Assembly (NCBI GenBank): GCA_964016885.1
Contig: OZ024740.1
Span: 225,804,001-225,868,000 of the forward strand
Source of the DNA: Eledone cirrhosa
Taxonomy: Eukaryota
Length of the DNA: 64,000 nucleotides
Direction: 5' to 3'
Numbering within the stretch: the first letter of the stretch is position 1; each line of letters starts with the position of its first letter. Positions 1,438-61,756 of this stretch are shown here, one piece after another. The translations under genes were made by a program, and so were the position numbers. Below the pieces are notes generated by a model. That model made no database searches and was not told the origin of the DNA. It worked only from the letters and a program-made list of their open reading frames with translations.

Positions 1438-1724
1438 TACAATATTAAATAAATGGAAAACTATATTTATAAAACCATATTTATTTCATTATATATATTT
1501 CGGGGATATCATATTAACATGTTTATATTGTATTTTGTCTGATGAAGGCATAGCATATTGTCAATATGATATCCCCGAAATATATATAATGAAATAAATA
1601 TGGTTTTATAAATATAGTTTTCCATTTATTTAATATTGTAAATATACTCCAAATATTTGTCGAGTGCTTTTATATCAGTTATAAATATTTACTAGTTGTA
1701 ACCCAACAATTTTAAATATAACTT

Positions 1725-5897: not shown

Positions 5898-6090
5898 GGG
5901 CGGTGGAGTGGCAGTATCGGTAGAGGAGCGGACGCCATGCTTTGACGCATAGAGTTACGCCCCCTTGCCATTCAGTGTTCGAATCTGCCGAGGTTAACTT
6001 TGCCTTTCATCCTTACGGGGTCGATAAAATAAAGTAATAGTAATTTACTGGGTAATTGCTGGCCTTGTGCCAAAAAGTAGAAACAATTGT
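5898..6090 (+). mobile_element. Meta-domain tRNA SINE (family A), full length
   Basis: A-box TGGCAGTATCGG, B-box GTTCGAATC, core TTTGCCTTTCATCCTTACGGGGTCGATAAAATAAAGTA, tail GTAGAAACAAT. Confidence 0.85.
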
Positions 6091-6164
6091 TAATGTGTTT
6101 ACCTCTTTGTCGAAGTAGACAATGAAGATGCAAGTAGACAAGTATATGCATGCATGATCCCATA

Positions 6165-8115: not shown

Positions 8116-8143
8116 ATGTGTATGTGTGTGTGTGTGTGTATAG

Positions 8144-10477
<2,334 letters not shown>

Positions 10478-10480
<3 letters not shown>

Positions 10481-10750
10481 GGAGGTGAGTTTTATTGTAG
10501 TACAATAAAGCAATGCAGATATCGGATAAGTAGCACTCTACAATTTGTAGGACTGGAGTATAGATAATAATATATATAATATATATAATAATATATATGT
10601 TGATTTAAAACTGCACTATTCACAAGTGTGTTTTAACCTTCATATCATGTCTCCCTATTTTATCTGATGAAAACGCAAATGTTATTGCATGATGATATTT
10701 GTTTTTGAAATGCGCATAATAAAATACATGGAACTCTTTTAACTATCTTT

Positions 10751-10977: not shown

Positions 10978-11032
<55 letters not shown>

Positions 11033-11087
11033 CGGCGATGAATTAGTTTTGCGAGGTTTTTTATATGAAATCGTGTGTCGAAACAGA

Positions 11088-11677
11088 TATTGTTATATTT
11101 GGGGAGGGTCATATTTGCGTAATATTGCCAGAATTAATAACAGAACACACTCACTGTTTGGTTGGTTTTCGCTTCTCGCTGTCTTTTATATATATATATC
11201 TGCGATCTAACTTACTCGGTCCTCAATGTTGCCATTGACTGACCGGCGGTCAAAAATAATACAGATACAATATAGACACAAACACATATATATAGTTTAC
11301 ATAATTTACATAAATCTTTCGTTGCACATCTGCAACATCGTCAGTGGTGTTATATTCATTGTTCCTCCTGTTGTGTTGTATGTCTACGCCATTTTTTTTG
11401 TTCAGTCTGTCTATATATTTATTTATTTATTTGCTTGTTTGTTTATAAATCGAAAGATTTATGTAAATTATGTAAACTATATATATGTGTTTGTGTCTAT
11501 ATTGTATCTGTATTATTTTTGACCGCCGGTCAGTCAATGGCAACATTGAGGACCGAGTAAGTTAGATCGCAGATATATATATATAAAAGACAGCGAGAAG
11601 CGAAAACCAACCAAACAGTGAGTGTGTTCTGTTATTAATTCTGGCAATATTACGCAAATATGACCCTCCCCAAATAT

Positions 11678-11683
<6 letters not shown>
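11088..11683. mobile_element. Second copy of the 8429 pLTR (11088-11445) plus an inverted partial copy (11451-11683)
   Basis: Near-identical sequence; the inverted copy begins at CGAAAG of the HHR core. Confidence 0.88.
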
Positions 11684-11763
<80 letters not shown>

Positions 11764-12619
11764 TCTTGTGTGTGAGCATGAATCATGTGTGTTTTCGAAA
11801 TATGTGTGTCTGGTGAATGAATCATTTAGGTAAGGACTATCAACTCAAACGTTAGCACTGAGTATACAGATAGACTTTAACAATTTCCATTACGCCAAAC
11901 AAAATTGATTTAATTCAAATACCCCTTTCAAAGAGTATATTCTATCAGCATAATTTGATCAAAAATTATACATTGAATTTTTTTAATTTAATATTTTATT
12001 CTATTTTATTTAAACGTTTATTTTTATTAACAAAAGTGGTGAGCACTACTAATTTATATTCGTTGCAATTATTACTCTACTACACCATTGTCCTTCATTG
12101 CCCTACATAAGTTTCGCAGCACCATAAAGGGGCCAGCAACCCCCACTTTGGTAACCACTGTTCTATACATTTTTACTGAATCAAACCACATTGAGTTACG
12201 TTATCGGTTTGTATCACAAAAGAAAAAGCGAAATGTACAAATAAATGCAGGTATGGCTGATCTCCTCCATAATATCGGAAAGACAGCGCACTCCCCACCC
12301 CGTCTGAGGAAGAAGCCCTATGAGAGGGGTGTATGATGCATCAGGTGTCGCTGGTCATTGTCCCCAGAAATACCATTGTATCCGCGGAAACACATCTCTG
12401 GCCGAAACACATCTCTGGCCTCTGTGTAGTGCCTGTCACCTTCTACACTTCACCCCTCCCTTCTTCCGTTGCACTCCTTGCTCTTTCACTCTTTTTTCCT
12501 CTCTGCTTTCTTTTTCTGTATGTTTGACTAAATAGTAAATTCTTTATTATATGTATGTAATTTGCAAACAAAATAATTGTCACAATATATATGAATATAT
12601 ATATATATATATATATATA

Positions 12620-13055
12620 TAGGAGGAAGTTATAGTTCACTTGAAGCACTGTGTAATGAGGTATAAACGTTTGTATATGTATAATAAAGCCAAAACAACG
12701 CAGGTATGGACATAGAATAAAGAATGCAGATGCAAAAGATATTGTTGACAATTAGTCTTTTATCTTAGATTTATTTAAATGTCCTTAATTTTCGAGATAA
12801 TATCTCTTCTTCGGAGGGAAGTAAAGCGGTTAAACCAGTGTTCTAAATAGCTTGCCAAGTCATGCTTGGCCAGCTATTTAGAACACTGGTTTAACCGCTT
12901 TACTTCCCTCCGAAGAAGAGATATTATCTCGAAAATTAAGGACATTTAAATAAATCTCAGGTAAAAGACTAATTGTCAACAATATCTGTTGCATTTGCAT
13001 TCTTTATTCTATGCCCATACCTGCGTTGTTTTGGCTTTATTATACATATACAAAC
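12620..13055. mobile_element. ORF-less palindromic pLTR (arms 12669-12859 and 12865-13055) with HHR-like motifs at 12906-12942 (+) and 12782-12818 (-)
   Basis: ~190-bp arms; CCCT-CCGAAGA-a-gagat[att]atctc-GAAA-AT-TA^AGGA; (TA)n flanks. Confidence 0.7.
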
Positions 13056-13454: not shown

Positions 13455-13812
13455 ATTTTGAGATAATGTTGGTTCTTTACCGACACCTCAGTAAGCAGAT
13501 TGGAGCATTCGACGAAGTACGCAGGTTGGTTTGTTTACTCCGGAGTAATGTAAAATAGTTAAGTCAAATATGTAAAATTTAGCTTCGTTTATTACAAATT
13601 ATAGATATACAGCTATATATTTTCGGTGACAGTCATCATTGGCTGTGACATCTTCAGGCAGTCCGAATTGGTGTGGGAAGGACAGGTACACCAATTCGGA
13701 CTGCCTGAAGAGGTCACAGCCAATGATGGCTGTCACCGAAATATATATAGCAGTATATTTTTATTTTGTAATAAACGAAGCCAAATTTTACATATTTGAC
13801 TTAACTATATTG
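13455..13812. mobile_element. ORF-less head-to-head pLTR element (arms ~13551-13674 and 13688-13810); same family as 60908-61552
   Basis: Inverted arms each carry an HHR motif; (TA)n flanks. Confidence 0.8.
13700..13754 (+). ncRNA. Minimal type I hammerhead ribozyme
   Basis: ACTGC-CTGAAGA-ggtcacagcca[atga]tggctgtcacc-GAAA-TATATA-TA^GCAGT. The mirror copy (~13609-13662) has a 1-nt deletion in helix III. Confidence 0.85.
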
Positions 13813-17997: not shown

Positions 17998-18692
17998 GCT
18001 AACAAACGATGCAGTAACACACGCGCACACACACACATAAACGAGACAACTACACACACACACGCACACACACGCACACACACACAGTAGCATTCCACCA
18101 TACGAACATACTACACTGCCAATACAGATGAACAAGGCAACAACACACACACACACACACACTCAAGCGAGACAACTACACACGCACACACACACACAGT
18201 AACATTTAACAAACAGGCAGAGAATGGACTGCTGACAGCTAGCGCCACCCCACTCCCTCATTCTGCCGCTGACCTCTGCCCGACCGACCCCATTTCAGGC
18301 GCAGGCGCGCTCTGCCGAATACCTCAGATGTTCAAAACAACAAACAGCGGAGGACGCGTTTTGCATTTGTCCGACAGACAACCTTTCCCCCACCCCGGAA
18401 AAAACCCCAGTTGATGGATGTGAATCCGAAATATATAGGGACTATTAAATCTCTCCCAAGGTAACTCTCTCTCGTGTTGTTATTTTATTTTATCCTTTAT
18501 ACTCTTTCCTTCATTCTTCTACACATCTCATACACACCACGCATCTCAACATACACCCACTTACATCTCTCTCTCCACCACCGGATCTTGTTACCCGGAG
18601 ATTTACCCATTTGCATTGTCGAGGCTTCCAAACGACTTAAAGATATTTACTTATTATTCCACAATGCTTCAAGTAAACTTCAATACTCTCTT
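16857..18692 (+). mobile_element. 5'-truncated Penelope-like element with 3' UTR / pLTR, inserted in (TA)n
   Basis: Uninterrupted ORF to 17997 followed by ~700 bp of UTR with an HHR-like motif at 18405-18441. Confidence 0.93.
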
Positions 18693-18968
18693 AAATATAT
18701 ATATATATATATAAGTACATATATATGAATATATTTATATATATATATGTATATATATATTTGTATATATGTATATATATATATATTTGTATATATGTAT
18801 ATATATATATGTGTATATATATATATGTATATATATATTTGTATATATACGTCTATGTGTATATATGTGTATATATATGTGTGTGTGTATATATGTGTGT
18901 ATGTAAATATGTGTATATATGTGAGTATATATGTAGATTTATATACGTGTATATATGTGTATATTTGA

Positions 18969-20301: not shown

Positions 20302-20486
20302 ATGGATTGGCAGTATCGGTAGAGGGTCGGACGCCATGCTTTGATGCATAGAGTTACGGCCCTTGCTATTCTGAGTTCAAATCCCGCCGAGGTTAACTTT
20401 GCCTTTCATCCTTACGGAGTCGATAAAATAAAGTACCAGTAATGTACTGGGTAATTTCTGGCCTTGTGCCAATAGTAGAAACAATT
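20302..20486 (+). mobile_element. Family A SINE inserted in a (TAT)n tract
   Basis: A-box, B-box, Meta core and tail all present. Confidence 0.88.
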
Positions 20487-21912
20487 ATTATTATTGTTCT
20501 TTGAGTCACAGTCATTGATGTTATTTAACTGGAATGTTTGTTGAAACGATATCAAGCCGCTACCTGCAGCCTCAGATATTCAGGACGTATCGGAGGGTTC
20601 TTGCTATTCCCAGCAAGTATGCCTTTGAAGTGTTCCAAAATGCGGGGCTGGACTAACTTTCTTTAACCATCCTTGGAAACTCTTTAAGATAGTACCTAGT
20701 GCGCCGATGACAATCGGGACCACTCTGACTTCATGGGAGTTCCAAATCCTTTTTACCTCCCATTTTAAGTCCTGGTATCGGTTAATTTTCTTCCTCTCCT
20801 TTTCTTGCACTCTCGTGTCAAATGGGCAGGCTACATCTACAATCAGGCACAATCTTTTTTCCTTGTCCAAAACGACCAGGTCAGGTCTATTGTGTTCCAG
20901 GTCCGTCTGTATCCTAAAATCCCATAGCACCATCACCTGATCGTTTTCTATCACCGACTCTGGCTTATGCTCATACCACTTCTCAGAATGTGGTAAATTG
21001 TTTACTTTGCATAGGTGCCAGTGTATCACCCTGCCCATCACATCATGTCTCAAGCCTTTATAGTCAGTCTGGGCTAGGTGTTTACACTCGGATACAATGT
21101 GAGCCACAGTCTCCTCTCTCTCTCCACAGATCCTACACAGTGGGCTAGCCTCCACCTTGTAAATATGGTGTTTCACCCACTTCGTTTTGAGTGCTTGCTC
21201 TTGCGCAGCCATTAGCATTCCTTCTGTACCCTTTTTAAGGTCTCCTCTTTTTAACCAGTTCCATGTCTGTGGATCTCTAAATTCAGTTTTCTCAAAGAAG
21301 GTACTATGAAGGGATTTTTCATGAAGGTTGGTCTTCCTCCTTGTTGTTATTTCCTTCCTGGACATGCCCTGGTCTATTGTTCTCTCCTTCAGTTCAATTC
21401 TGAACATTGGCTCCCTACTGTCGGTCACGTATTTGTGCAGGTTGTTTTTCTCCATCTGAACAGAGTCCTCTATGCTGATAAGACGTCTTCCACCTTCAGA
21501 TCTCTTTAAGTAGAGTCTATCGACATCACTCCTCTTGTGGAACATGTTGTAGATAGTCAATAGCTTCCTAGTCTTCCTATCCATTTCTTTTTGTTCAGCA
21601 ACATTCCATTTCAGAATTCCAGCACTGTACCTAATAATAGACACAGCTCGGGAATCCACTGCACTTATGACATTCCTACTATTTAGATGTGATTTTAATA
21701 CGCTCCTTACTCCCCTAATGTACGAGATCTTATCAATTCCATCATTTTTTTGTTCTTGATGTTATCTGCCTCCAGAACACCTAAATATCTGTATACTTCT
21801 TCAATGTCAATTTCCTTTATCGTCTCACCTGTAGGTACCTGGATTCCGTTACTTCTGCTCAATTTACCCCTCTTCATCACTAGAACTCCACACTTATTAA
21901 TACCAAATTGCA
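20487..21912 (-). mobile_element. 5'-truncated R4/Dong-like LINE (RT C-terminus, CCHC knuckle, restriction-like endonuclease)
   Basis: YRYLG, RLYLKRSEGGR, CRICGEREETVAHIVSEC, RHD, RPDLVV...IVDVACP, KINRY. 3' end runs into (AAT)n. Confidence 0.9.
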
Positions 21913-24574: not shown

Positions 24575-24780
24575 TGTGTGTGTGTGTATGTATGTATGTA
24601 TGTATGTATGTATGTGCATGTATATATGTATATATAGGATGAGAAATTTTACAAAGTCAGTCATTGTCCCATGAAATAGCATGCCTTGTGGTAATTGTTC
24701 CAGCGTTCCACTGTTGGATGTCAAATTCAATTGAGGTTTGCTTTCAGTGTTAGTAGAGTTCAATAAAGTACCAATCAAAT

Positions 24781-24966
24781 AATTGTTTCTACTTTAGGCA
24801 CAAGGCCAGCAATTACCCAGTGCATTACTGGTACTATATGTTATCGACCCCGTAAGGATGAAAGGCAAAGTCAACCTCGGCGGGATTTGAACTCAGATCG
24901 TAAAGGGACGTAACTATGCTGGAAAGCATGGCGTCCGACCCTCTACCGATACTGCCAATCCACCGC
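24781..24966 (-). mobile_element. Family A SINE
   Basis: Near-identical to the 40094 copy. Confidence 0.9.
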
Positions 24967-26207: not shown

Positions 26208-29180
26208 TTTTTTATATATATTTTTATGTGTATTTCGTGTATACATTCGTATGCGTGCGGGTACAGGCGTTGCGTGGGTTGTGTATGTGCGTGCGGGTTT
26301 TTGTATACCTATGGCGAATGTTTTCGCGTATGCTTGTGTATGTACGTATATGGATGCCTGTATGTATTTATTTAATTTCAATTACCTCTGTAATTTATTT
26401 ACTTTATTCTTAACTCTGGAGCCGAGAATCATTCGGTTTCCTAGTTAGAATTTTAGTCTACGACTTCAGTTACACCATTTAGGTGGTTTTGTCTGTGCGT
26501 GCAATTGTTCTCTACGCCCAACATATGACGTATTATCTTCGTTTTTTCCGTTCATTGCCAGAGAACGTCTCTATGAACCACCTGATAGAATATTAATCTA
26601 CGACTTCTTTTATACTATAAACGTGGTTTTGTCTTTGCGTGTAATTGTTTTTCACTGCTCCAAATAATGACGTATTATATTCGTTTTTCCCGTTCTTTGT
26701 CAGGGAACGTTTCCACGAACCAAAGTATCGTCTTCCTGTCTCCCTCCGGTTGCAATGTTTTTTGAAATATTTACTTCTGCGTTCACAGATTGACTTTGTT
26801 AGTTTCAGAAGACCACGTTAAGGGTGAAAGCAGCGATTCTTTGCTTAAACTTTAATCTGTTATTTTAATAAATATTTGCTCTACGGTTCTTATATTTTTG
26901 ATATATATTTATCCTTATCGAGCCCTCTTTGGATTTTAGTCTCCAAAATTATCATTACTACTAGTTGGCTCCCTCGGTTGAGCACTCTATTGACTTATAT
27001 TCATCATGCAGAAACAACATCTGAATATTTCTACAAAGAACATACCCGTACCAAGCAGGAAAACATACCTAAAACTCCTGATACAGAAAACAGACGCGTT
27101 CATTAAAAGGTTGCGTTGGCGTGCCTTTTATTTCGATAATCAGGCAACAAACGAGATAAATTTGGGTTTAAAACCTATAATAACCCTGCGAGTAACCCAG
27201 CATTGATCCCCTTCGAAAATGATGTCTTGGAACTCATACGGAGTATCAAATTTCGGAATAGGAGCAATTCCTTCCAGCAGGACCTGAAGAATAGAATTCG
27301 TTCTATTAAGGATTCTAATGCCGTGCACGTCCATTCCGACAAAACTGGCAATATATACCAAGTGGAGCGCAGTACTTACCATCAACTGCTACATAATGCT
27401 GTAACTAAGGATTACCGTAAAACTAATCGGAGCATCATTAGTGAAATCAACGATGCTGGGTTTAAAATGACCTCTGATCTCAACATCCTGAACCGAACCG
27501 AACCTCTGGACCCTATTTCTCCCCACTTTACCCTGAATGATCACAAATCCAATTTTCCGAACAACCCCTCTATTCGGCTTATTAACCTTACGAAGTCCGA
27601 TTTAGGTAGACTTAGTAAAAGGATTCTTGATAGAATTATACCTGAAATTAGAAGTTTGGCCCCTCTTGCACTGTGAAACAATCCTTTCGCGGTGATTGAT
27701 TGGTTCAACGGCATATGCAACAAGGAACATTATCGTTTTATCCAATTCGACATCAATAATTACTCCTCCTCCATCACTTTACCACTTCTCCTTAGAGCTA
27801 TCAATTTCGCTAAAACCCTCACAGTGGTTAAGGATTTCGAAGTTGATGTCGGTGATTAATTTCGACGACTCTATTTGGATAAAAAATCTAATATTACCCA
27901 ATTCGACGTGAGTATGGGCGCCAGCGATTCTGCGGAGGTTACTGATCTTATCGACCTTTTCCTTCTTTTCTCTATCAAGGAAGAATTACCCAAAGTGGGC
28001 GGTGGTTTGTACCGTGATGATGGTCTTTTGACCATGACTAAGTGCGGCCCACGTGCTTGCGACAGGTTCAGAAAAGAACTCACAGCCTTCTTTAAAGGCT
28101 TCAACCTCTCCATACAGGTTGAGGCCAACCTCTCGGTCATTAATTACCTCGACGTTACCCTCAATTTATCGGATGGATTGCATTACCCGTATAGAAAGCC
28201 GAATGATACGCTTAATTACATAAGTAAGCATTCTAACCATCCTGCCTGCATAACCAAGAACCTGGTAAGAAACGTTTCTTTGAGGCTTTCCCGTCTATCT
28301 ACTAACGAGCATATCTTCAACGACCATTCCAGATATTACAATGAAGCTTTTGTTCGGAGTGGATTTGTCGATAAGGTAGCCTATACAGAGTACGAGAATA
28401 GACCTAGAAGAAATAGATCCCGGCGCATTATATGGTTAAACCCACCATATAATGTGGAGGTGGCCACACCATTAGCTAAGATCTTTCTCTCATTTATTAT
28501 GAAGCATTTTCTCCCTACACATAAATATAGTAAAATCTTTAATAGAAATACTATTAAAATGTCTTACTCTACGACTCCTAACCTTGCACATAACATCACA
28601 GCTTCAAATTTAGCTAAACTACCTAGCCGTAGGAACACGGGCAACCCTGTAGTTAGTACTAGCTGTAATTGTAGGAATCGGGTTGACTGCCCCCTATCCG
28701 GGAAATGCCTCTCTAGTACATTGTCTACAAATGTAAGGTTGAAGCACCCACATCTCGTAGGGCCTACATAGGGTTAACCACCAATAGATTCAAGCTGCGT
28801 CTTTACATGTGTACCCATTCTTTTCGTAACCCTTTAAGAAGGAATATGACATCACTTTCAGCTTATATCTGGGGTCTAAAAGACAACCACACTCAATATA
28901 AGTTACACTGGGAGATCCTAGCTAGGGCTAGATCGTATAACGGAAATAAAAGACCATGCGATCTCTGCGCCGCTAAGGCCCTGAAAATACTCTACGCCAA
29001 AGACCACATCTTAAACAAAAAATCTGAGGCAATTTCGGCTTGTAAACATAAATTGCACAAAACTTTCCTGTATTACTGGCTTCTCAAAAGAGTTTAGCAT
29101 GATGGACTTTTATTATATATGTATTACCCTAGTACATTAAATATTGATATAAAATACATACATACATTAAATCTATCTTA
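26050..29180 (+). mobile_element. Near-full-length Penelope-like element, frameshifted (ORF region 27006-29097)
   Basis: STKNIPVPSR, DKTGNIY, RLINLTKSDLG, QFDI, SMGASDSAEV, GGLYRDDG, NYLDVTL, CNCRNRVDCPLSGKCL, YIG, CDLCAAK..ILNKKSE. Confidence 0.92.
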
Positions 29181-30581: not shown

Positions 30582-31159
30582 TCAGGTCACTAGTTGGTGC
30601 TACTGGTAACATGTATCCCAGTACAACCTGTCTCAAGGTCGGGTCGTTGGCGATTAAACTAGCAACCCCACCAAGGTTTCTTGGTGAGGAGGGTGATTTT
30701 GGACATCCTGCAGGAATAAAAACTAAACCCGTCAAAGTGCAAAGGAGCTCTTAAGAGTCAATGGCCATCCAAAATCACCGGGAGAGATGACACATTAGCC
30801 TTTGTCAAGGCAGAATTCTAGGAGAAGGAAAACTCTGATATAACACCTGCAACCCTGATGGTATCCAATGATGTTGACTTGTTCTTCTTTTTTGTAAATA
30901 TCATCTTGGTTAAGAGAGTGGGACTGGCTTTGTGCAGTGCCTTTGCTCACTATAAAAGCTTCACGGCACAGGCATTGCTTTATATCTGGAGATCTCTCTG
31001 CACTTGTCGTCACATGGTACCATGGGCCAGCAGTATGTACCAGAGTTTTCAAGTCGCTGGCTGGACTAAAAAGTCACACTTGTTCAGCGCATCGGAACGG
31101 GCTCTCCTACATGGATATAAAGTAGTGGCCGTACTCGAAAACGAGTTGGCAGCCACCAT
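30582..31159. mobile_element. Unclassified ~575-bp GC-richer insertion within (TATG)n
   Basis: Sharp boundaries to (TATG)n on both sides; no recognisable ORF. Confidence 0.5.
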
Positions 31160-31174
31160 GTATGTATGTATGTA

Positions 31175-32168
31175 CTTCTGGTTTTATAATTTCACAAATG
31201 TTTACCAATAGAGAGAGATTCGGTTTCTAACATAGACACAAGACTCTCTCTCATTGGAATTTACACAACATCAACTAGGTAGATTATGTATGCATGCATG
31301 CCTGAATGCATTCATGTGTAGATATGGATGTTATTGTATGTGTGGATGTGTATGTTTTGAGTTGTATGTGTGCATGTGTATATGCTTTGTATCCGTACAT
31401 GTGTATATGGAGTTATTAGATGCAAAGTTCTTGGAATGTTTTACATATTGCTACTGTTCCATTAATGGATTGTACTTGTAATGTCCTAACTAGTTGTGTT
31501 CTTTCTGTTCCTGTGAAGAATATCTTCTCAAGGTTTGTATTGGGGCAGTTACTAACATACCCCTGTGCCCCAATAATGACAGGTATAAATCAGAAGGTGT
31601 AATCAGGGTGGAGTATTTGCAGATTTCTCATCAGTTCTGCATAAATATTCTCCTTTTCGCTGATCTTTGATATTATATTGGCATCTCCTGGGCATCTAAT
31701 TTCCACTACTGTGCATGTTTTCTTCTCCCTGTCCCATATCATAATATCTGGTCTGTTATGCCTGCATTTTATTGGGGTTTTTACTGGAACATTCCACCAG
31801 TGCACTTTCATATTATCTACATAGATGTCTTCCACATTACTGTAGCTTTTAATGTGTTTATTATATTTTCTACGGATTGCATTGTACAGTGTTTTGGCCA
31901 CAACATCATGCCTCATAGGTAGATAGTACCGCGATGATATCTTTGGACAGCTGCTGATGAAATGGGTGACATCTTCGATGTTAATTCTGCAGAGTCTGCA
32001 CTTGTTATCACATCTAGATGTTTTGCCTGCATCCCTATCTCTTTTGTAAATCAGGTATTTCGTGTTAATTTCCTGTTCTTGGATTGCAAAAGCGTATCCT
32101 TCAAAGTGGGAGCCAATATAGCGGTTGTTGGTCCAAGATAGACTACTTTCCTTATCTATATTACTCTA
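31175..32168 (-). mobile_element. R4/Dong-like LINE 3' copy 1 (~1 kb)
   Basis: CRLC..EDVTHFISSC, RHDVVAK, RPDIMIWD..VEIRCP; 3' UTR ends in (CATA)n. Confidence 0.9.
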
Positions 32169-32199
32169 TATTATGTATGTATGTGTGTATGTATGTATG

Positions 32200-33188
32200 T
32201 TCTTTTGGTTTTATATTTTCACAAATATTTACCAATAGAGAGAGAGAGTCGGTTTCTAACATCGACACAAGACTCTCTCATTGGAATTTACACATCAACT
32301 AGGTAGATTATGTATGCATGTATGCCTGAATGCATGCATGTGTAGATATGGATGTTATTGTATGTGTATATGTGTATGTTTTGATTTGTGTGTCTGCATG
32401 TGTATATGCTTTGTATCTGTACATGTGTATATGCAGTTATTAGAAGCAAAGTTTTTGGAATGTTTTACATATTTTTACTGTTCCATTAATGGATTGTACT
32501 TGTAATTTCCTAACTATTTGTGTTCTTTCTCTTCGTGTGAAGCCTAGCTATTGAGGCAGTTACTAACATACCCCAGTGCCCCAATTATGACAGGCATAAA
32601 TCTGAAGGTGTAATCAGGGTGGAGTATCTGCAGATTTCTCTTCAGTTCTGCATAAATATCCTTCTTTTCGCTAATCTTTGATATTATATTGGCATCTGCT
32701 GGGCAGTTAACCTCCAGTACTGTGCATGCTTTCTTTTCACTCTCCCATATTATAATATCTGGTCTGTTATGCCTGCATTTTATTGGGGTTTTTACTGGAA
32801 CATTCCACCAGTACTCTTTCATATTATGTATATGGATGTCTTCCACATTGCTGTAGCTTTTAATGTGTTTATTATCGGGGCTATCTTTTCTACGGATTGC
32901 ATTGTACAATGTTTTGGCCACTACATCATGCCTCAGAGGTAAATAGTAACGCGATGACATCTTTGGACAGCTGCTGATGACATGTGTGACATCTTCGATG
33001 TTAATTCTGCAGAGTCTGCACTTGTTATCACATCTTGATGTTTTGCCTGCATCCCTATCTCTTTTGTAAATCAGGTATTTCGTGTTAATTTCCTGTTCTT
33101 GGATTGCAAAAGCGTATCCTTCAAAGTGGGAGCCAACATAGCGGTTGTTGGTCCAAGATAAACTACTTTCCTTATCTATATTACTCTA
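32200..33188 (-). mobile_element. R4/Dong-like LINE 3' copy 2 (recombinant of copies 1 and 3)
   Basis: Same family and same 5' junction as copy 1. Confidence 0.9.
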
Positions 33189-34194
33189 TATTATGTATGT
33201 ATGTGTGTATGTATGTATGTTCTTTTGGTTTTATATTTTCACAAATATTTACCAATAGAGAGAGTCGGTTTCTAACATAGACACAAGACTCTCTCATTGG
33301 AATTTACACATCAACTAGGTAGATTATGTATGCATGTATGCCTGAATGCATGCATGTGTAGATATGGATGTTATTGTATGTGTATATGTGTATGTTTTGA
33401 TTTGTGTGTCTGCATGTGTATATGCTTTGTATCTGTACATGTGTATATGCAGTTATTAGAAGCAAAGTTTTTGGAATGTTTTACATATTTTTACTGTTCC
33501 ATTAATGGATTGTACTTGTAATTTCCTAACTAGTTGTGTTCTTTCTCTTCTTGTGAAGCCTAGCTATTGAGGCAGTTACTAACATACCCCAGTGCCCCAA
33601 TTATGACAGGCATAAATCTGAAGGTGTAATCAGGGTGGAGTATCTGCAGATTTCTCATCAGTTCTGCATAAATATCCTTCTTTTCGCTAATCTTTGATAT
33701 TATATTGGCATCTGCTGGGCAGATAACCTCCAGTACTGTGCATGCTTTCTTTTCACTCTCCCATATTATAATATCTGGTCTGTTATGCCTTCATTTTATT
33801 GGGGTTTTTACTGGAACATTCCACCAGTACTCTTTCATATTATGTATATGGGTGTCTTCCACATTGCTGTAGCTTTTAATGTGTTTATTATCGGGGCTAT
33901 CTTTTCTACGGATTGCATTGTACAATGTTTTGGCCACTACATCATGCCTCAGAGGTAAATAGTACCGCGATGACATCTTTGGACAGCTGCTGATGACATG
34001 TGTGACATCTTCGATGTTAATTCTGCAGAGTCTGCACTTGTTATCACATCTCGGTGTTTTGCCTGCATCCCTATCTCTTTTGTGAATCAGGTATTTGGTG
34101 CTAATTTCCTGTTCTTGGATTGCAAAAGCGTATCCTTCAAGGTGGGAGCCAATATAGCGGTTGTTCGTCCAAGATAGACTACTTTCTTTATCTA

Positions 34195-35104
34195 TTAGGT
34201 TGGGGAATAAGTTGTGACCGTTTTTATTAAAATTAAAAAATGTATGGAGAAAGGGAAGACATCTGCAAATCTTTTATGTTTGTTCAATGAGATTTTATTG
34301 CTCTAAAAGATAGCGTCTTTGTCTTTTTAATTTCATTGCTTTTCATTCAGTTTCAGAGCATTAAAATGGAATGTCAAGTGAACAGAATTGAACATTTTCG
34401 ACGCTTTTTGCTTTTTGCATTTAATCGAGGTTTTAACGCCGCCAAAGCCTCTCGTGAGACTTGTGACCTGTATGGAGAAGGAGCAATGCCTCAATGTACC
34501 GCCCGCCGTTGGTTTTTATCTTTAAAAATAGAAATTTTGAGCTTAAGGACGGATCACGCTCCGGTCGACCAATTGAATTTGATAAGGAGCGATTAAACCA
34601 ACTTCTTCACGAAAATCCACGTCAGACGACCAGAGAATTGGCCGAACAGATGAATTGTGACCATAAAACTGTGGTAAATCACCTTCACCCAATGGGCAAG
34701 GTTCAGAAACTTGGCGCATGGGTGCCACACGCTTTGAGCGAAAACAACAGAAAACAACGCTCCACGATTTCCGCCAGTTTTCTCGCTCGACATGGCTTAA
34801 CACATCCCCCATACTCTCCAGACTTGGCACCATTAGATTTCCACCTCTTTCGATCACTTTCGAATGTAGTGCGCGGTGTATCGTTCAATAATAATGTGGA
34901 ATTGAGCGCTTGGTTGAACCAATTCTTCAGTTCAAAACCGCCAAGCTTTTATCGCCAAGGCATAGATAAACTTATTGAACGGTGGGAGGGGGTCACCAAC
35001 AACAACGCAGATTATCTTGTTGACTAGTTTTATGCAATTTAACATTGTAAAACTATGACAATAAAATATTTTGAAAAACGGTCACGACTTATTCCCCAAC
35101 TCAA
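34195..35104 (+). mobile_element. Internally deleted mariner DNA transposon (910 bp) with TA target-site duplication
   Basis: TIRs TTAGGTTGGGGAATAAGTTGTGACCGTTTT and AAAACGGTCACGACTTATTCCCCAACTCAA; transposase motifs RSGRP, WVPHAL, HPPYSPDLAPLD. Confidence 0.95.
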
Positions 35105-37519: not shown

Positions 37520-37700
37520 TATTGGCAGTATCGGTAGAGAGTCGGACGTCATGATTTCCAGCATAGTTACGTCCCTTTACGGTCTGAGTTCAAATCCCGC
37601 CGAGGTTAACTTTGCCTTTCATCATTACGTGGTCGATAAAATAAAGTACCAGTAATGTACAGGGTATTTGATGGCCTTGTGCCAAAAGTAGAAACAATTA
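37520..37700 (+). mobile_element. Family A SINE nested in the LINE
   Basis: A-box, B-box, Meta core and tail. Confidence 0.88.
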
Positions 37701-38464
37701 TTAATATCGATAGTGTTTTCTCCAGCATTCGAGGTAGAGTTTGATGTTATACGTGGTGTCAAATTTCTTACAGGCATAGTTGTTTCAAGGCACTGTTCGA
37801 CCTGGCTGCTAGGAAGTCTAGTAGCATGGTTACCTGTAGTACGTGTTGTTGCATCCATGTTTGTTGTGGGGCACTTACAATTAATAATATTTATCTTATA
37901 TTTACGTTCAACAAACGTCGCTTGTTGGCGTAATTGTTTCGCTGTGAAATAATTTAGCTCTGGGTGTATTTCGTCCCAGTGTAGCTTCATTCTGTTCATA
38001 TAGCCAATGGAGGGATTGTTTTGTGCCATTTTATAACAATTAAATAAATCATCATTAAGTTCGCAACTCCAAGATAAATGCGATTTATAATTTCGATTTC
38101 TTCTGTAGCTACAACTGAATAAATTATGTTTACCCTTTTCGTTGTTTTTCTTCGGTACTTCTTTAATGTTGTTGATGCTGTTGTGTTCAGCCATTCTGTT
38201 TGTAGCAAATCCTTGTAAAAGGAATTATGTATTTAGTTGGATATCTCTACGAATTCAAATAAAATGTGTCTTCATTGGATATAGTTTGAAGAATAACCAG
38301 TTATTCAACATGACTGGTAGTTGTGGCATTACTGGTGGAGATAGTATTCATCTTGAATTTAATGAATAGTGTCCCACATCAAAATATGCGACTGACCGAC
38401 TGACTGTATGTATGCATGTATGCATATATGTATGTATGTTTGTATGTATGTATGTATGAATAAA

Positions 38465-39000
38465 AATATAATTTCACAAAGTTTTACCAATAGAGAGAGA
38501 GTCGGTTTCTAACATAGCAACAAGACTCTCTCATTGGAATTTACACAACATCAACAAGGTAGATATGTATGTATGCATGCATTTGTAGATATGGATGTTA
38601 TTGTATGTGTGGATGTGTATGTTTTGACATGTATGTGTGCATGTGTATATGCTTTGTATCTGTACATGTGTATATGCAATTATTAGATGCAAAATGTTTG
38701 GAATGTATGTATGTATGTTCCTCTGGTTTTATAATTTCACAACTTTTTGCCAATAGAGAGAGAGTCGGTTTCTAACACAGACACAAGACTCTCTCATTGG
38801 GAATTTACACAACATCAACTAGGTAGATATGTATGCATGCATGTGTAGATATGGATATTATTGTATGTGTGGATGTGTATGCTTTGAGTTGTATGTGTGC
38901 ATGTGTATATGCTTTGTATCTGTGCAGGTGTATATGCAGTTATTTGATGCAGAATGTTTGGAATGTTTTACATATTTTTACTTGTAATTTCCTACCTAGT
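38465..39000 (-). mobile_element. Two further short 3' UTR copies of the (CATA)n-associated LINE (38465-38705 and 38718-39000)
   Basis: Match the 31175 and 32200 3' UTRs; separated by (TATG)n. Confidence 0.85.
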
Positions 39001-39078
39001 CGTGTATGTATGCATGTACGTATGTACGTATGTACGTATGTATGTGTGTGTGTATGTATGTATGTATGTAAGTATGCA

Positions 39079-39115
<37 letters not shown>

Positions 39116-39559
39116 GTGTGTATGTATGTGTGTATGTGTGTGTGTATGTATGTATGTATGTATACATGCATGTATGTATGTGTGTGTATGTATGTGTGTG
39201 TATGTATGTATGTATGTAAATGTATGTATGATCATCTCGATAATTTTGTGTTCTTTAAAGCTTGTAGTTATTCATTTCAAATATGCCTACGTTTATGAAG
39301 AATGTTATAATGTATATAGTTATTGTCATGAGAGCCATTATTTCTTAATTGGACATTTAGAAAGACATTTCTACTGATTACGACTTCACAAATAATGAAC
39401 AATTTCAATACATATTTACAATTATTAATGTGCGCAGATATGTATAGGAAGCTTAGAAGATTGCTTAGCAAACTCGCAGTTCTGCATTCGATCCCATTCC
39501 TGGAATAAACAGAGTGAGGGAGAAAAATTATTTACGTTTAGTTACCTCCATCTAGAATC

Positions 39560-40060: not shown

Positions 40061-40093
40061 GCAAATGCATATATGTGTGTATAGATATATATC

Positions 40094-40272
40094 TGTTTCT
40101 ACTTTAGGCACAAGGCCAGCAATTACCCAGTTCATTACTGGTACTTTATTTTATCGACCCCGTAAGGATGAAAGGCAAAGTCAACCTCGGCGGGATTTGA
40201 ATTCAGATCGTAAAGGGACGTAACTATGCTGGAAAGCATGGCGTCCGACCCTCTACCGATACTGCCAATCCA
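40094..40272 (-). mobile_element. Family A SINE with TSD AGATATATATC
   Basis: Full motifs and a flanking direct repeat. Confidence 0.9.
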
Positions 40273-40522: not shown

Positions 40523-40881
40523 AAAAGAGGTTTTTTTAATATATATATACATATATATATATACAAAAGTTTATACACCATCAACGAAGTCATGGTTGCA
40601 GTCAAGCTAAATACAGTTTCGGTGTGTAGCTAAGCACTCTGATAAGGTATATAACCCTAGAGTTATAACATTACGTTTAGACAGCTTTGCAAAATGAAGA
40701 CAGCGACCGATAGAAGGGCCGCAGTGATATATATATATATATATATATTTATAATGTAGGAGGTGAGTTTTATTGTAGTACAATAAAACAATGCAGATAT
40801 CGGATAAGAAATACTCTACAGTTTGTAGGACTGGAGTATACATAATATATAAGATCAAAAGATGGTTAAATGAGTTCCATG

Positions 40882-41684: not shown

Positions 41685-41754
41685 CATGGAACTCATTTAA
41701 CCATCTTTTGATCTTATATATATATATTTATATATATATATATATATATTTATA

Positions 41755-41831
<77 letters not shown>

Positions 41832-42101
41832 ATATATTAAAATAACAGATTAAAGTTTAAGCAAAGAATCGCTGCTTTCACCCTTATCGATCCTCTTCAG
41901 ATTTTAGTCTTCACATTTATTATTATTACTATATATATATATATACATACATATACATATATATATATGTGTGTGCATGTATGTATATATATATACATAC
42001 TACTGTACGTCTGTATACATATATGTATGTACGTGTACATACTTATATTTAAGTAACAGCCGTACTAAGAGTGGGAAATGAAATTTGGTTTCATTTTTTC
42101 C

Positions 42102-43462: not shown

Positions 43463-43507
43463 AAATATATATGTGCACATAGACATATATAGAGAGAGAT
43501 ATACTAA

Positions 43508-43686
43508 ATAATTGTTTCTACTTTTGGCACCAGGCCAGCAAATACCCAGTGCATTACTGGTACTTTATTTTATCGACCCCGTAAGGATGAAAGGCAAAGT
43601 TAACCTCGGCGGGATTCGAACTCAGAATGGCAAGGGCCGTAACTCTATGCGTCAAAGCATGTCCGACACTCTACCGATACTGCCAA
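43508..43686 (-). mobile_element. Family A SINE
   Basis: Full motifs. Confidence 0.9.
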
Positions 43687-43802: not shown

Positions 43803-45736
43803 TGAGAGAGAGAAGCAACAGAAGCAAAAAACATTCAAATAGTTGGGAAACAAATGTGTAATAAAATATAATTAAAGAAAACTCTATGAGAAACAGAGTA
43901 TTGGATTGACCAGGTCGAAGATACAACGATAATGTCCTGTTGTATTTTTGGTTTACATAAATTTTAATTTGTTATGTCATTTTCTTGTTTTTAAACAGCG
44001 CCATTGTGATGGAAGATAAATCTGTAAATACAAGATATACAAGAGTTTTTTTCCCCAATTTTATACAACATGTAGAACGGGAAAAATTACCAAAACATAT
44101 TGAAAGATATTTTTAAAATGAAAGAAATAAGAAGAGAATTTTCTCTAAAATCGCTGTTAAATTATTTACACATGATCACACACATAAACAGATATCTACA
44201 TACAGTTATCCAATCATTCATACACAATCTTGCCTATGTTTGTACGCACACACGCGATAAAATATACTTCCTCCCTCAGAAAAAAAAACTTACCTGTCAG
44301 CTCAAACCACATCTAATACAAGTACACCGCCCGATTAATGTATGTTATAGATGTCGTTAGCTTTCTTTGCCCATTCAGACAAAATGTTATTTGGGAAAAC
44401 ATATATAAGTGAATGAGACATTTCTCGAGTTTTCTAAAGATTGTCTGGTTTTAGCTTCAACAAACAAAGGTTTGATTGTTCTTTGATCAATTTTGTGACC
44501 AATATCAAAGAGAGCTAGTTTATTTCATGTAAAATACTTCTGTTTAACCATAGAGTGTGCAGTAAATTAGATTTTTCATGTATCTAGATATATGAGGGTC
44601 ACAATTTCTTAAGAATTAACTTTAGTTTATAAAATTAACTTCGACTAAAATTGGCGAAATCCCATGAATCTGGAACAAGTCCTGGCAGATTGAAATCATG
44701 AAGTAGACTAATATATTTATATATTTTGTCTGAACTTTATCGTTTTAGCTATCTCATTATCATTGTTTAACTGCAGCAGCATGTGACAACATCTTCTACC
44801 TATTTCAACTAGTATCTATTATAATTGAGTGATTAGCGCTGGCCACCGAGAGAGGGTTTGAGGCTCCAATCAAGATTTGTACTCACAATGCAAATAGCTG
44901 TAAGAGATATCCTACCAATTTCACCCACGACAATTAATTTTTGTTTGTGAACCCAGAGAAAAAATACGAGTATGTTGACATCAGCAGCATTTGAACTCCA
45001 AATACAAAGAACGGGAACAAACACTCAAAATAATTTTACCAGTTCACCGTATACTGTTTGTCAAATTGTTACTGGCCTTATATACCGTATTTGCTGGCGT
45101 ACAAGGCGACTGGATGTATAAAATGACCCCAAAATTTCAAGTTAAAAAGTAGGTTTTTAGATATATTCGCCGTATATGATGATCCCCTACCCTAGCCCCA
45201 CCCAATCGTATTTAAAATGTATTGTATTGAATTTATTAAATACATTCAATAAGCATATACTTACGTTTCACTCAAATTCTAATGAAAAAGCGGTGGTGAG
45301 ATATTGTCAGTTAACTCCCACAATCTATACCTACCGTTCCCCTACCATAATCTACCCGGTACACTTACCGTTACCCGGTAATGATAACACGGTCATCTGG
45401 TGTAAGCGTAAATACTGGTGACGTCACTTTAAAAAAATACCGGTGTATAAAGGTTAATATTTTATTGACAATTGCTTACAGGAATAACTGCGCATCTCTA
45501 TTTATTCTTGCCAAACGTTTCTTTATATTGGTAGTTAAATGAGAATTGAGCATATCCCACACTAACAGGCTATGTTGATTACTATGTCCCTGTGATCACC
45601 TACTCCATATATTATCAAGCCATATCCTAATCCCTTCTTCATCCATCCAGCCTTTTTTCATTTACATGTACAAGAAGTGGTTAGCATGCTAAACTATGAA
45701 TACCAGTTTATTCCTTGAATTCTTACTGTAAACTGA

Positions 45737-45926
45737 GGCGGTGGATTGACAGTATCGGTAGAGGATCGGACGCCATGCTTTGATGCATAGAGTTACGGCC
45801 CTTGCTATTCTGAGTTCAAATCCCGCCGAGGTTAACTTTGCCTTTCATCCTTACGGGGTCGATAAAATAAAGTACCAGTAATGCATTGGGTAATTACTGG
45901 CCTTGTGCCAAAAGTAGAAACAATTA
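45737..45926 (+). mobile_element. Family A SINE with TSD TACTGTAAAC
   Basis: Full motifs and a flanking direct repeat. Confidence 0.9.
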
Positions 45927-46089
45927 CTACTGTAAACATCTTATATCCTGAACGTTCGAGCAGAGCGCTCTGTCTGGCGAAGCACTTTGAACGACCCAAG
46001 GCTAGCAGTTATTTTGTTTACAGTTTGTGACGATAATTTTGGATTTCTCTCTTGACGAATATACGTTTTATTATCGTTGTACAAACATG

Positions 46090-55108: not shown

Positions 55109-55194
55109 TATATTAGATGAGAAAAAACTCTAATTCTGAGAGTACAAACAAGATAAACAAAAAAAGTATTCTGTCTAACTTCGCTTATATATAC

Positions 55195-55727: not shown

Positions 55728-56034
55728 AGTTTAGACATATAATTAACTTCCTATTCCACAGAACAATCATAAAAATACATAGATATTAATGTTCTCATCA
55801 ATATTTACAGAGTGGAGATGTTGAGCTCAGTATCATTGGATACGACAAAGATTACAAAAGAATAATATAACAATTAAAGAGGCATTAAGGCAGAAAATTA
55901 CTCGTAAAACGAGGACATTAACAGTACATATGCAAGCGTATAGAGAGTGTAAATGTGTTAGGCATGTACAGAATAGCTATGTAGGAAATAAGCAATGGTA
56001 CTAGGCATATATATGGTAAAGGTATCACATAATA

Positions 56035-56453
56035 TAATTGTTTCTACGTTAGGCACAAGGCCAGCAATTACCCAGTGTATTACTGGTACTTTATTTTATC
56101 GACCCCGTAAGGATGAAAGGCAAAGTTAACCTCGGCGGGATTTGAACTCAGAATGGCAAGGGCCGTAACTCTATGCGTCAAAGCATGCCGTCCGACCCTC
56201 TACCAATACTGCCAATCCACCGCCACATAATATAATATCACATAATATAATGCAGGTTTACAAGCACATTAAGCAGACGAAGATGTTTGTGTATTAAAAG
56301 TAGTTTCTATGAAGTTTATGGTGGATGTAGTGTGATAATTGTTCCTGTAATGTACAAATGTGCATGTGTTGTGAGTATTAATATTAATATTAAAATAAAG
56401 TACCAGTAATACACTGGGTAATTGCTGGCCTTGTGCCAAAAGTAGAAACAATT
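56035..56453. mobile_element. Family A SINE (56035-56225 minus, TSD CACATAATATAAT) and a 3' fragment (56390-56453 plus)
   Basis: Full motifs in the first copy, tail only in the second. Confidence 0.88.
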
Positions 56454-57671: not shown

Positions 57672-57862
57672 AAGGGTGGTGGATTGGCAGTATCGGTAGA
57701 GGGTCGGCCGCCATGCTTTCTAGCATAGTTACGTCCCTTTACAGTCTGAGTTCAAATCCCACCGAGGTTAACTTTACCTTTCATCCTTACGGGGTCGATA
57801 AATTAAAGTACCAGTAATATACTGGGTAATTTCTGGCCTTGTGCCTAAAGTAGAAACAATTA
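57672..57862 (+). mobile_element. Family A SINE with TSD TATGTTGCTATG, inside the PLE ORF
   Basis: Full motifs and a 12-bp flanking direct repeat. Confidence 0.9.
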
Positions 57863-60066
57863 TGTTGCTATGTAGGTTTACCCCCTGTTGTGATTTAATT
57901 AGTTGGAAATCATTATTAATCTTCCTTTTATTACTACTAGCTATATGGTACGCGATGTTATGTGTCGTAGAGTGAGAGATTTTTATGGTATTTTTATTGA
58001 TAAGATTATGGTATTTGTGGCCGACTGGGAATTATTTTTTCTGAGGCAAGTTGGTGGAAACGTTTAGATTGAAAGGGGAATTGAAAAATGTATTAGTTCT
58101 TCTATTTTTGTTTTTTGTAATATTATTATTGGGGTGTTTATTCTGGTGCGAGTTAAGTTTGATATTACCCTTCGTACTAGAGTTATAGTGGCTAGTACTT
58201 TTATTATTTTTTCTCGTGGCCATATTTTGAGAAATAATGTTGTAACTAGGTGATTTTATAGGTAAAAATTTAATTTCGTTTTTATGGCCTGATTTAGCTA
58301 AGGCCTCATTATAGTATTGTGAATTACAGTTAAATACGGTTTCATTATATGATAGAGTAGAAATTCTATTTGATATTCCTTTAGTAATCGAGTTTAATAT
58401 AGATTTAAGGTGGTTAGAGTTGGTATCTACATAGAGTAGTTTTTCGTTTGGTTTATGAAAGTGTACGTATATTTTAGAGTCTCGGCAAAGGTTAGCACCG
58501 AGGAAGTTAACGTTTTTAGTGTTTGAATCTAAGGTAATACCCAAGTTGAAGTTTTTGAAAATTTTATGTAATTGTTTCCTAGTTCTTTCTATATTAAATT
58601 TGTTATAGCTAATAAGAAGTAGTGCATCATCGCGGTATAAACCACCATTGAGGTAGGGTCGATTCCTATGAATTTAATGTAATATCTATAGACCCACCAA
58701 GTCAGTGACCTGCGCAGAGTCACTAGATCCCATAGTTAATTCAACGTTGTTAGCTGTATCCTTGCGGGACTATAATTTATCTTCAAATATAATTATGGTT
58801 TTACGGGCCGCAAGTATGACATTAATTTGGGATCTACTAAGGTCACTATTGTTCATAGCCATAATTAATGCCTTATTTAATAGGATAGGAGAAATAGAGG
58901 TGTAATATGAATTAATATCAAATTGTATACATTTTTTTTTTAATTCTCTTTAATATCATTGAACCATTCAATAACTCCACCAGTATTTATCCACAGGTTA
59001 ATATATATTTTATGCTTAAATTGAGGGATGATTCTATGTAATATTTTTTTGCTGATAATTCCAATGTCAGATTTGGAAGGGCAAATTAGTCTTATAGAAG
59101 GGTTACTATTAAAGTCTTCCTTATGGTCCTTCAGAGAGAATATTGGTGGGTTAGGGGTGTATGACTGTGTATGTCTCTGAAGTCCTAATTTACATACTAT
59201 ACCATGGCCTTCTATATTTATATCTTCTAAGTTTTTAATAGTGGTTTTCTTATAGCTCCTATGTAGTTCATTATATATAAATTGTCTATATGTATCGTAA
59301 TCTAGGCTATATATATTATTAGTTTTATCTGCATGTACTAGAATTTTTTTTTTTTTTATTAAATCTTTTAATAGTGGAGTTAAGGTTGTTTAAGAAGGTA
59401 TTGTTTCTATTATGATGTTTTCTGTACTTTATGTTCTTAATTAGTTTTATTAAATCAGTTTCGAAAGAGTTTAATAAGGTGTTGTGAGGTGGGCTTTTTA
59501 AAGTGTTAAAGCCGTAAGAGTCGAAATTGTTTACATCTCTGTTTTTGTTTGTTCGGTTTCTATCGTAATGGAATGTCCTTCATCTCACTCTATTGATAAA
59601 AGAGTTGACACTATTAATCAATAATTTTTCGTACGTATCCCTAGATGGTATTGGTATGTTCTTAGCAGACATAGGAAGATAATCTTTGATTAGCATACTG
59701 GTAATTTTATGTATGTTAGCTCAACAGTATCGAGCAGGTAACAATAATAATATTATTTATACTTATATATACACTATATATAATTATAAACAGGAAAGGT
59801 CAGTAATTCATCAGTACCGTATTACCAGTAAGAAAAATAGCTCAATGTAAATACATCAGATGTTTTACAGAGCAGGAATATAAATTACAGAATAATCAAA
59901 ACATTTTATTGCTGACAATCGTTTCTTCCAAACTTCGTATGGGATCATCGGAACATTAGCAAAGTTTAAAACATCTGATGTATTCACATTGAGCTATTTT
60001 TCTTACTAGTAATGAATTACGGACCTTTCTTGTTTATAATTATATATAGTGTATATATAAGTATAA

Positions 60067-60827: not shown

Positions 60828-60905
<78 letters not shown>

Positions 60906-60907
60906 TT

Positions 60908-61552
60908 TTAGTATATGTTGGTTGTATACCAACATCTCAGTATGCAGCCTGGAGCACTCGACGAAGTGCGCAGGTTGGTTTAGTTACTCCGGAGTAATGT
61001 AAAATAAAGTTAAATAAAAAGTCAAATGTTTAAAATGTAGCTTCGTTTATTACTGCTATATATATTTCAGTGACAGCCATATTTGGCTGTGACTTCTTCA
61101 GGCAGTCTGAATTAGTGTGGTATAGACAAGTACATATGTTGTTGAGATGCATAATTTTGTCAATACTCTGATATGCCCAGTTCCTGGTTGGGTTGTTATT
61201 TCACTGAGGAACTGGAATCATATAGTGTGGTATAGACAAGTACATATGTTGTTGGGGTGTATAATTTTGTCAATACTCTGATATGCCCAGTTCCTGGTTG
61301 GGTTATTATTTCACTGAGGAACTGGAATCATATGATTCCAGTTCCTCAGTGAAATAACAACCCAACCAGGAACTGGGCATATCAGGGGTATTGACAAAAT
61401 TATACACCTCAACAACATATGTACTTGTCTATACCACACTAATTCAGACTGCCTGAAGGTCACAGCCAAAGATGGCTGTCACCGAAATATATATAGCAGT
61501 AATAAACGAAGCTAAATTTTAAACATTTGACTTTTTATTTAACTTTATTTTA
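60908..61552. mobile_element. ORF-less head-to-head pLTR element (13455 family) with a ~110-bp tandem duplication in the left arm
   Basis: Perfect centre GGAACTGGAATCATATGATTCCAGTTCC; arms ~61000-61331 and 61332-61551. Confidence 0.85.
61052..61106 (-). ncRNA. Minimal type I hammerhead ribozyme (the mirror copy 61448-61500 lacks G8A9)
   Basis: ACTGC-CTGAAGA-agtcacagcca[aata]tggctgtcact-GAAA-TATATA-TA^GCAGT. Confidence 0.85.
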
Positions 61553-61756
61553 TATATATATATATATATATATAAAATAGGTATGTATACGAAGTCCGAC
61601 TAGCAAATGGAATCAAGTATTTATATGCAATCCACAATGCATTTACGGCAAATGCTCGTATATTGATTAATTTGAGTTTTCCAAATAGGCGAAACCGTTA
61701 GGCGTCGTAATCGGATTTTTGTCCTCTCTCTATAAATACACCTCCCCACATACGTT

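Follow-up and report, generated by a model that had tools for sequence, protein, structure and literature searches.

The stretch of Eledone cirrhosa DNA analysed here, referred to as the window (64,000 nt), lies within a genome of 3.0 Gb and is rich in retroelement remnants that adjoin (TA)n. A family A insertion near its start comprises an inverted short arm (1440-1519, minus strand) that meets (TA)n just before the position of a hairpin, H1, and, on the plus strand, a minimal type I hammerhead (1532-1595; identified by eye and missed by the descriptor, with cleavage predicted after 1588), H1 itself (1646-1665; ACTC-CAA-loop-TTG-TC-GAGT) and a tail running from the short end to the long end of the family (1639-1729). 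Copy L011 of this family continues into a second hairpin, H2, which lies 3-9 nt beyond the tail, and then into the ORF. Further H1 hairpins are found on the plus strand in families E (1075-1095, with the tail end near 1160) and J (8261-8284, with the short arm end near 8142; H2 is present in one read-through copy, L013), and on the minus strand in family C (10535-10559, a descriptor match, and 40813-40837, with the short arm end near 41721, the tail end near 40753 and H2 in copies L087 and L088), in family B (13507-13546, with one outer pair broken in the window copy, and 60956-60995, with the short arm end near 61555 and the tail end near 60904) and in another family, where H1 (1845-1880) belongs to the long arm of the palindrome 1882/2367.

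Families G and H display both hairpins in the window. In family G, a long-looped H1 (26878-26923, plus strand) lies 128 nt upstream of the ATG at 27006, and H2 (26968-26983, plus strand), 3 nt before which tail ends map, precedes a broken Hydra-clade RT-EN ORF without its 3' end (27006-29076, plus strand). In family H, on the minus strand, H1 (59840-59873) is followed by H2 (59719-59735), whose first inner pair is broken in the window copy and which stands ahead of the ATG at 59696; within the window, the tail of this family ends some 19 nt short of H2. The H1 hairpins at 1845-1880, 26878-26923 and 59840-59873 were absent from the original prediction, which had also taken the 27-kb element for full-length: beyond 29076 it no longer matches an intact copy, so that its 3' end is incomplete.

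On the diagnostic motifs of their predicted proteins, the hairpin-bearing elements are Hydra-clade PLEs. The marks of this clade, as described by Craig et al. (2021, PMC8557442), are RWK in place of GxKF/Y, a change of DKG to DKT, a CxCX5C linker followed by a C-terminal GIY-YIG EN without CCHH, CxxC and CxH near the end, insertion into (TA)n, a canonical type I hammerhead in the pLTR, and a length mostly below 3 kb with one ORF. Where copies of families A, B, C, G, H and N read through, they enter ORFs with RW[RK] and DKT, and CxCX5C, CxxC and CxH were seen in family G, the ORF that was read to its end. DKT instead of DKG is invariant in 23 aligned proteins; for the RWK-type motif, copy L422 has RLRWR, and W38 is unchanged across families G, A, C, B and N. 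The linker CNCRNRVDC at 564, CDLC at 662 and CKH were located in L422, thus for family G only. Pfam gave no match to L422, and one homologue gave only a sub-threshold GIY-YIG match. Comparison of copy ends establishes (TA)n as the target of the families. Family G has a single ORF of 709 aa in a unit of about 3.2-3.3 kb, and the predicted structure of its intact protein (pLDDT 89.8) has TERT as the top fold match, as expected for a PLE protein.

A type I hammerhead is matched by the descriptor in families B and C and recognised by eye in A and N, its cleavage being predicted only. The interval between this predicted cleavage and the hairpin, put originally at about 50-66 nt, is 53-67 nt (B and C by descriptor, the hammerhead beside 1645 by eye). 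In family G (window 26806-26840, plus strand) CAGAAGA replaces the hammerhead core CUGANGA in the copies read; the family is nonetheless abundant, with long ORFs, and its ribozyme may be variant or inactive. A family G insertion of about 100 nt at 41830-41930 has one short and one long end, and its junction creates a chance CTGAAGA beside a hammerhead remnant. The window also holds tandem repeats of about 1 kb that include the C-terminal portion of an ORF from a non-LTR retrotransposon (31159-34195), a shorter, related array (38441-39217), and at least nine copies of an interspersed repeat that is abundant and, at about 190 nt, SINE-like in size (5899-6097, 20303-20494, 24778-24966, 37521-37712, 40081-40272, 43480-43686, 45734-45929, 56002-56227 and 57675-57871).

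The hairpin motif

The consensus of the motif is RCTC-stem-loop-stem-TN-GAGY: an outer stem of 4 bp encloses an inner stem of 2-6 bp, and the 2-nt bulge TN separates the two on the 3' side. Loop length varies from 3 to more than 60 nt, and RCT often comes after the hairpin. Every confirmed site in the window is of the bulged form and none is a plain hairpin. Descriptor matches numbered 42 in 264 kb, against 11.3 +/- 2.6 in 20 shuffles. A larger sample of 1.26 Mb, consisting of the window and 120 stretches picked by position and not by sequence, contained 168 matches with a 2-nt 3' bulge (60-73 in 5 shuffles) and 149 of its mirror image, the shape that one hairpin takes when read on the opposite strand (54-75 in shuffles). 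In the same sample 1-nt bulges were at chance level, 3-nt 3' bulges slightly above it (71 versus 45-61), and stems without a bulge numbered 128 (60-90 in shuffles). The Rfam gathering score was reached by none among the 150 matches listed of 214. In one family (L149:5885 and L224:2241), what follows the short end is this outer stem combined with a bulge of 1 nt and 4 bp of inner stem.

As had been anticipated, the inner stem covaries across families, by permutation counts rather than R-scape. Forty hairpins, 15 of them hand-picked, were anchored on the outer stem alone, so that outer pairs served as anchors and inner pairs did not; inner positions 1-3 were paired in 33, 35 and 27 of them, compared with 22.2, 19.2 and 15.5 under permutation, with p-values that overstate independence because the families are related. 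Three or four Watson-Crick types occur at each inner position. Among 25 automatically chosen clusters the corresponding counts were 20, 22 and 19. In the short-loop hairpins (23 of the 40), 97% of cells were paired and 31 cells were changed on both sides, a level of pairing reached by none of 500 shuffles, and slid controls gave at most 50%. RNAalifold on a gapped alignment returned the outer 4 pairs only.

The reverse complement of the motif is almost the motif itself, and the strand on which it acts is only weakly resolved. G-U exceeds A-C by 12 to 6 in the hairpins, and the pair probability of isolated hairpins is 0.98 in the sense and 0.96 in the antisense direction, sense being higher in 29 of 36. 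When the whole region from the short end to H2 was folded, both local hairpins appeared in one of seven references, and pairing of H1 with H2 was frequent instead. Together with its flank, the 3' arm of the hairpin makes up an almost palindromic sequence, GAGYRCTY (for example at 1662-1669 of the window, plus strand), and H1 and H2 are therefore able to pair with each other; such pairing, favoured in many of the predicted folds, could act as a switch.

Two hairpins at two insertion ends

Each fixed end of Hydra-clade PLE copies adjoins its own hairpin, lying a few bases 5' of it. Copies of families A, B and C stop at two places, a short end just before H1 and a long end before H2, with H2 directly beyond the long end in the copies that read through it. 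Across the 1.26 Mb not chosen by sequence, 146 ends from seven families comprised 65 short ends, 72 long ends, one read-through past H2 and eight others, placing 137 of the 146 at the two hairpin sites. Here an end counts as short when it falls between -16 and +2 relative to H1. It counts as long when the alignment stops between -16 and +12 relative to H2; for diverged tails, an onset of (TA)n between -22 and +6 also qualifies. At all 12 sites, in six families, the mode of the last shared base is 2-7 nt ahead of the hairpin, and at these 12 modal sites the nucleotides assignable to either element or target number 2-6 (mean 3.0, against a background of 0.84). The tail is mostly 60-110 nt long, and H2 lies 20-75 nt upstream of the ATG. 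A tail ending at the ATG of the ORF, as CATG at family A ends might have indicated, was considered and rejected: the ATG lies beyond H2.

For family B, H2 was predicted; it was then found in 24 of 24 pattern matches, each time 7 nt past the tail end, with swaps from CA/TG to CC/GG within the family; a control with the reversed pattern gave no matches. This search establishes presence rather than frequency because it required the motif. H2 was also found in families A, C, G, H, N and D and in one copy of J. A pattern search for read-through in family J gave no matches, the window tail being a mutated form, and for family E 21 pattern matches had no shared read-through, so that no H2 was found there. 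At L183:1490-1880 a family B insertion runs through H1 and H2 almost to the ATG, resumes upstream of H1 and then terminates at the short end; its other arm stops just past H2. This layout points to template jumping or to a circular template of small size.

A motif-free search that started from asymmetric palindromes yielded 127 arms in 46 clusters. In 71 of the 127 arms a hairpin starts between -6 and +17 nt relative to the short end, compared with nine and one in the control windows, and 18 of the 46 clusters have one there. The 56 arms and 28 clusters that fail this strict test include mutated copies, long loops, 1-nt bulges and other variants, other clades, and families with tails of 33-60 nt that lack the motif.

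These results recast the original prediction, which held that a single hairpin marks the element end across unrelated families. Short ends do cluster just 5' of a hairpin, as proposed, and the overlap of junctions with the target amounts to 2-6 nt of UA/AU, in keeping with the suggested match between UA-rich RNA and (TA)n; there are, however, two hairpins and two ends. The form GCTC..TTGAGC noted ahead of the ATG is a real hairpin and represents H2, not a variant of H1. Six of the eight sites listed are true (1075, 1645, 10531, 13506, 40812 and 60955), and hairpins were confirmed at the looser or compensated sites 8261, 26968 and 59719. The remaining two fail: the family at 18591 has its ends at 18654 and 18693 and lacks the motif, and the site at 55126/55144 has no inner pair, the window copy stopping before the real H1 and H2 of its family, which are present downstream of that point in other copies. 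Short arms were said to meet (TA)n just before the motif; they do so at 1439, 8142, 13811, 41721 and 61555, whereas 13455, 40755 and 60908 correspond to the tail ends of their palindromes and not to short-arm ends. The palindrome at 12620, offered as a variant, has a different tail of 42 nt.

Nor is the hairpin common to unrelated PLE families: Hydra-clade families share it, and the families at 18591, 12620 and 11087 are without it. The family at 18654/18693 has DKG and LGPKF motifs, lacks the hairpin at both ends and has a 39-nt tail that includes the start of the ORF; in the 12620 and 11087 families the motif is absent at the short ends. Non-Hydra families (18654-18693, plus strand; 12620-12662, minus strand; L082; L438-L445) have 39-42 nt tails with ACARTGCTTCAAGY; for the 18654 family this sequence is where the ORF starts (MLQANF), and a tiny UGCU-UCA-AGYR hairpin is possible directly after the short end in the families with ACARTGCTTCAAGY. 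Another fold-back family targeting (TA)n (8344-8784 and 10993-11774) has a tail of 55-60 nt and no RCTC hairpin.

Fold-back pairs and the proposed choice of start sites

Adjacent head-to-head pairs obey a simple rule. Fourteen of 146 such pairs have an unclassable end, and among the 132 classified, 126 combine a short end with read-through of H1, six combine two read-through ends and none combines two short ends. The same classes number 71, 3 and 0 among 74 pairs at loci that were not selected by the tail query. In four of the six exceptions the end is that of an internal pLTR and not an outer end; the other two, L417 and L423, may be true exceptions. Either end can lie on the long copy, as shown by 20 family G copies with long ORFs (12 short, 7 long and 1 interrupted).

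The 5' junctions were examined in 49 family G copies that have the ATG, of which 13 extend past the reference and 36 are mappable. Fourteen of these 36 junctions fall within 12 nt of H2, where a uniform distribution would place 2.4. This pile-up fits a protein-bound block to RT arriving from the ORF; it may alternatively reflect transcription start, local AT-rich microhomology or selection for an intact ATG. The idea that the H2 junctions mark exactly one round of copying on a circular RNA found no support: of seven copies with such a junction, three end at the long site and three at the short site, and one is interrupted. No pile-up of family G 5' junctions was found at the hammerhead cleavage site.

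Because the ends adjoin hairpins and the fold-backs nearly always combine one end of each kind, the hairpins are likely to be start signals in RNA: H1 and H2 are probably binding sites that place the RT at two internal start points. The EN would cut both strands of the (TA)n tract while two protein subunits occupy H1 and H2 of one RNA, and each DNA end would serve as a primer, loosely paired to a UA patch 2-7 nt 5' of the hairpin. The hairpin would stay uncopied and the two cDNAs would be joined head to head, the tail being the interval from H1 to H2, about 55-100 nt; protein bound at H2 would also stall RT coming from the ORF. Because each last copied base has its hairpin on the 3' side, short arms lack H1 and tails lack H2. 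Such a two-site RNA ruler would therefore produce the tail, the rule of one tail per insertion and the head-to-head inverted pLTR. The Poseidon element PAc (PMC11167929), with two internal starts at the bounds of its tail, cleavage of both strands, a requirement for RNA 3' of the starts and a predicted dimer, speaks for this reading. Pairing with the UA patch has a point against it, as the priming site of PAc was reported not to be homologous to the cut DNA (PMC11167929). Also counting against the overall reading are the weak strand preference, the rarity of both local hairpins in folds of the whole region, the arms and clusters that fail the strict test, and the published Hydra consensi that lack a clear hairpin. 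In its fuller form, with a PLE dimer on two identical hairpins of one RNA performing twin TPRT from the two ends of a single DSB, and with a portable 16-nt motif that could send any upstream RNA into (TA)n, the proposal is put forward tentatively.

The ends might instead be set in DNA, with cDNA made past the hairpins and the GIY-YIG EN trimming or resolving it just 5' of each. Craig et al. (2021, PMC8557442) put the tail down to EN-mediated resolution, and PMC11167929 cites a case in which EN recognises, in plasmid DNA, the tail region from D. virilis; the motif, moreover, folds on both strands, and GAGY-RCT is near-palindromic. This explanation is nevertheless considered unlikely, since the in vitro start sites of PAc coincide with tail ends (PMC11167929), G-U outnumbers A-C and the sense fold is favoured in the proportions given above, one of 146 sampled ends reads past H2, and the loops vary from 3 to over 60 nt. 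A slightly smaller chance is given to the hairpins being RNA processing or termination signals that generate two RNA species, each copied from its 3' end by ordinary TPRT. The ends are indeed sharp and just 5' of a structured element, with short and long ends about equally frequent, but two free RNAs would yield short-short as well as long-long pairs, and short-short pairs number none of 132; PAc, furthermore, starts internally on a longer RNA (PMC11167929).

Least probable of all, and regarded as very doubtful, is that AT-rich microhomology by itself sets the ends and that the hairpins are nearby for reasons of promoter function, translation, RNA stability or hammerhead folding. Every junction does lie in an AT-rich patch with 2-6 nt shared, H2 is 20-75 nt before the ATG, and the 5' pile-up could mark transcription start. 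Against it stand the many other TA patches of the pLTR that are unused, the hairpin spacing of 2-7 nt kept at both sites in six families, and the scarcity of hairpins in control windows (9 and 1 versus 71); the pair rule, too, would be left unexplained. Placement of the RT by H1 and H2 on one RNA is accordingly the reading preferred here.

Relation to known systems

Bound RNA structures fix the start or stop of reverse transcription at the R2 3' UTR, at the telomerase template boundary and at HBV epsilon, and twin priming of L1 gives rise to inversions. The present case differs from all of these in that two copies of one motif would act on one RNA, with two primers and at fixed sites.

The hairpins extend beyond Eledone. 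Five metagenome loci were matched; in L252 and L255 the match begins close to the contig start, and in all three loci with upstream DNA (L251, L253 and L254) H1 and H2 precede the ATG, as judged by eye, with GTTC/GAAC and GCAC/GTGC among the outer stems of the metagenome loci. Craig et al. give six new Hydra consensi in their supplement, of which three have at least one clear hairpin by eye. One sea cucumber consensus there begins at H1 and carries H2, and sea cucumber and coral consensi have H1 after the hammerhead; a copepod consensus has deviant forms only, and two further consensi are without a clear hairpin. Alignment of the Hydra protein against viral and prokaryotic contigs found nothing, and the motif matches listed in viral contigs are taken for chance.

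The Hydra-clade elements of Craig et al. (PMC8557442) resemble those described here in their RWK-type and DKT motifs, CxCX5C, (TA)n target and hammerhead near the 3' end, and in having an inverted 5'-truncated copy with the tail on one end. Their tail is given as 30-40 bp and ascribed to EN resolution, whereas here it is mostly 60-110 nt and both of its ends adjoin a hairpin. The main text of that paper, figure images apart, contains neither "hairpin" nor "stem-loop". In Poseidon PAc (Frangieh et al. 2024, PMC11167929), likewise, two internal RT starts bound the tail, an AT-rich target is cut on both strands, a dimer is predicted and RNA 3' of the starts is needed. PAc differs in that it belongs to another clade and starts inside the ORF, in a stem loop that is rich in AC, and the portions of the report covered here mention neither a conserved or duplicated motif nor a rule of one short and one long end; its supplements gave no match on searching, with figure S2C, which may bear on the motif, outside that search. 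Penelope of Adineta vaga (Arkhipova et al. 2013, PMC3846280) also forms head-to-head insertions with the tail on one arm, but self-priming on an antisense template was proposed for it, the tail is in the ORF, and the parts of that paper covered describe no cis-signal at the end.

In the literature searched, with subscription papers, Repbase Reports and figure images outside its scope, neither the motif nor its duplication is described. This includes the portions covered of bioRxiv 10.64898/2026.07.22.740005 and PMC4209133, which do not describe the motif, and of PMC12503042, in which a term search gave no match. The element class, the tail, internal initiation and the frequent restriction of the tail to a single end are already known; what is new is that both ends adjoin the same motif.

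How PLEs choose their internal starts, and why the tail is found at one end, has been a question since these elements were first described, and the sole in vitro study found two starts with no defined signal. A short, duplicated and covarying motif at a fixed spacing of 2-7 nt provides exact mutants for testing, and the hairpins can be used to annotate the boundaries of Hydra elements. They also present a minimal candidate module for recognition of RNA by RT in the sister group of telomerase.
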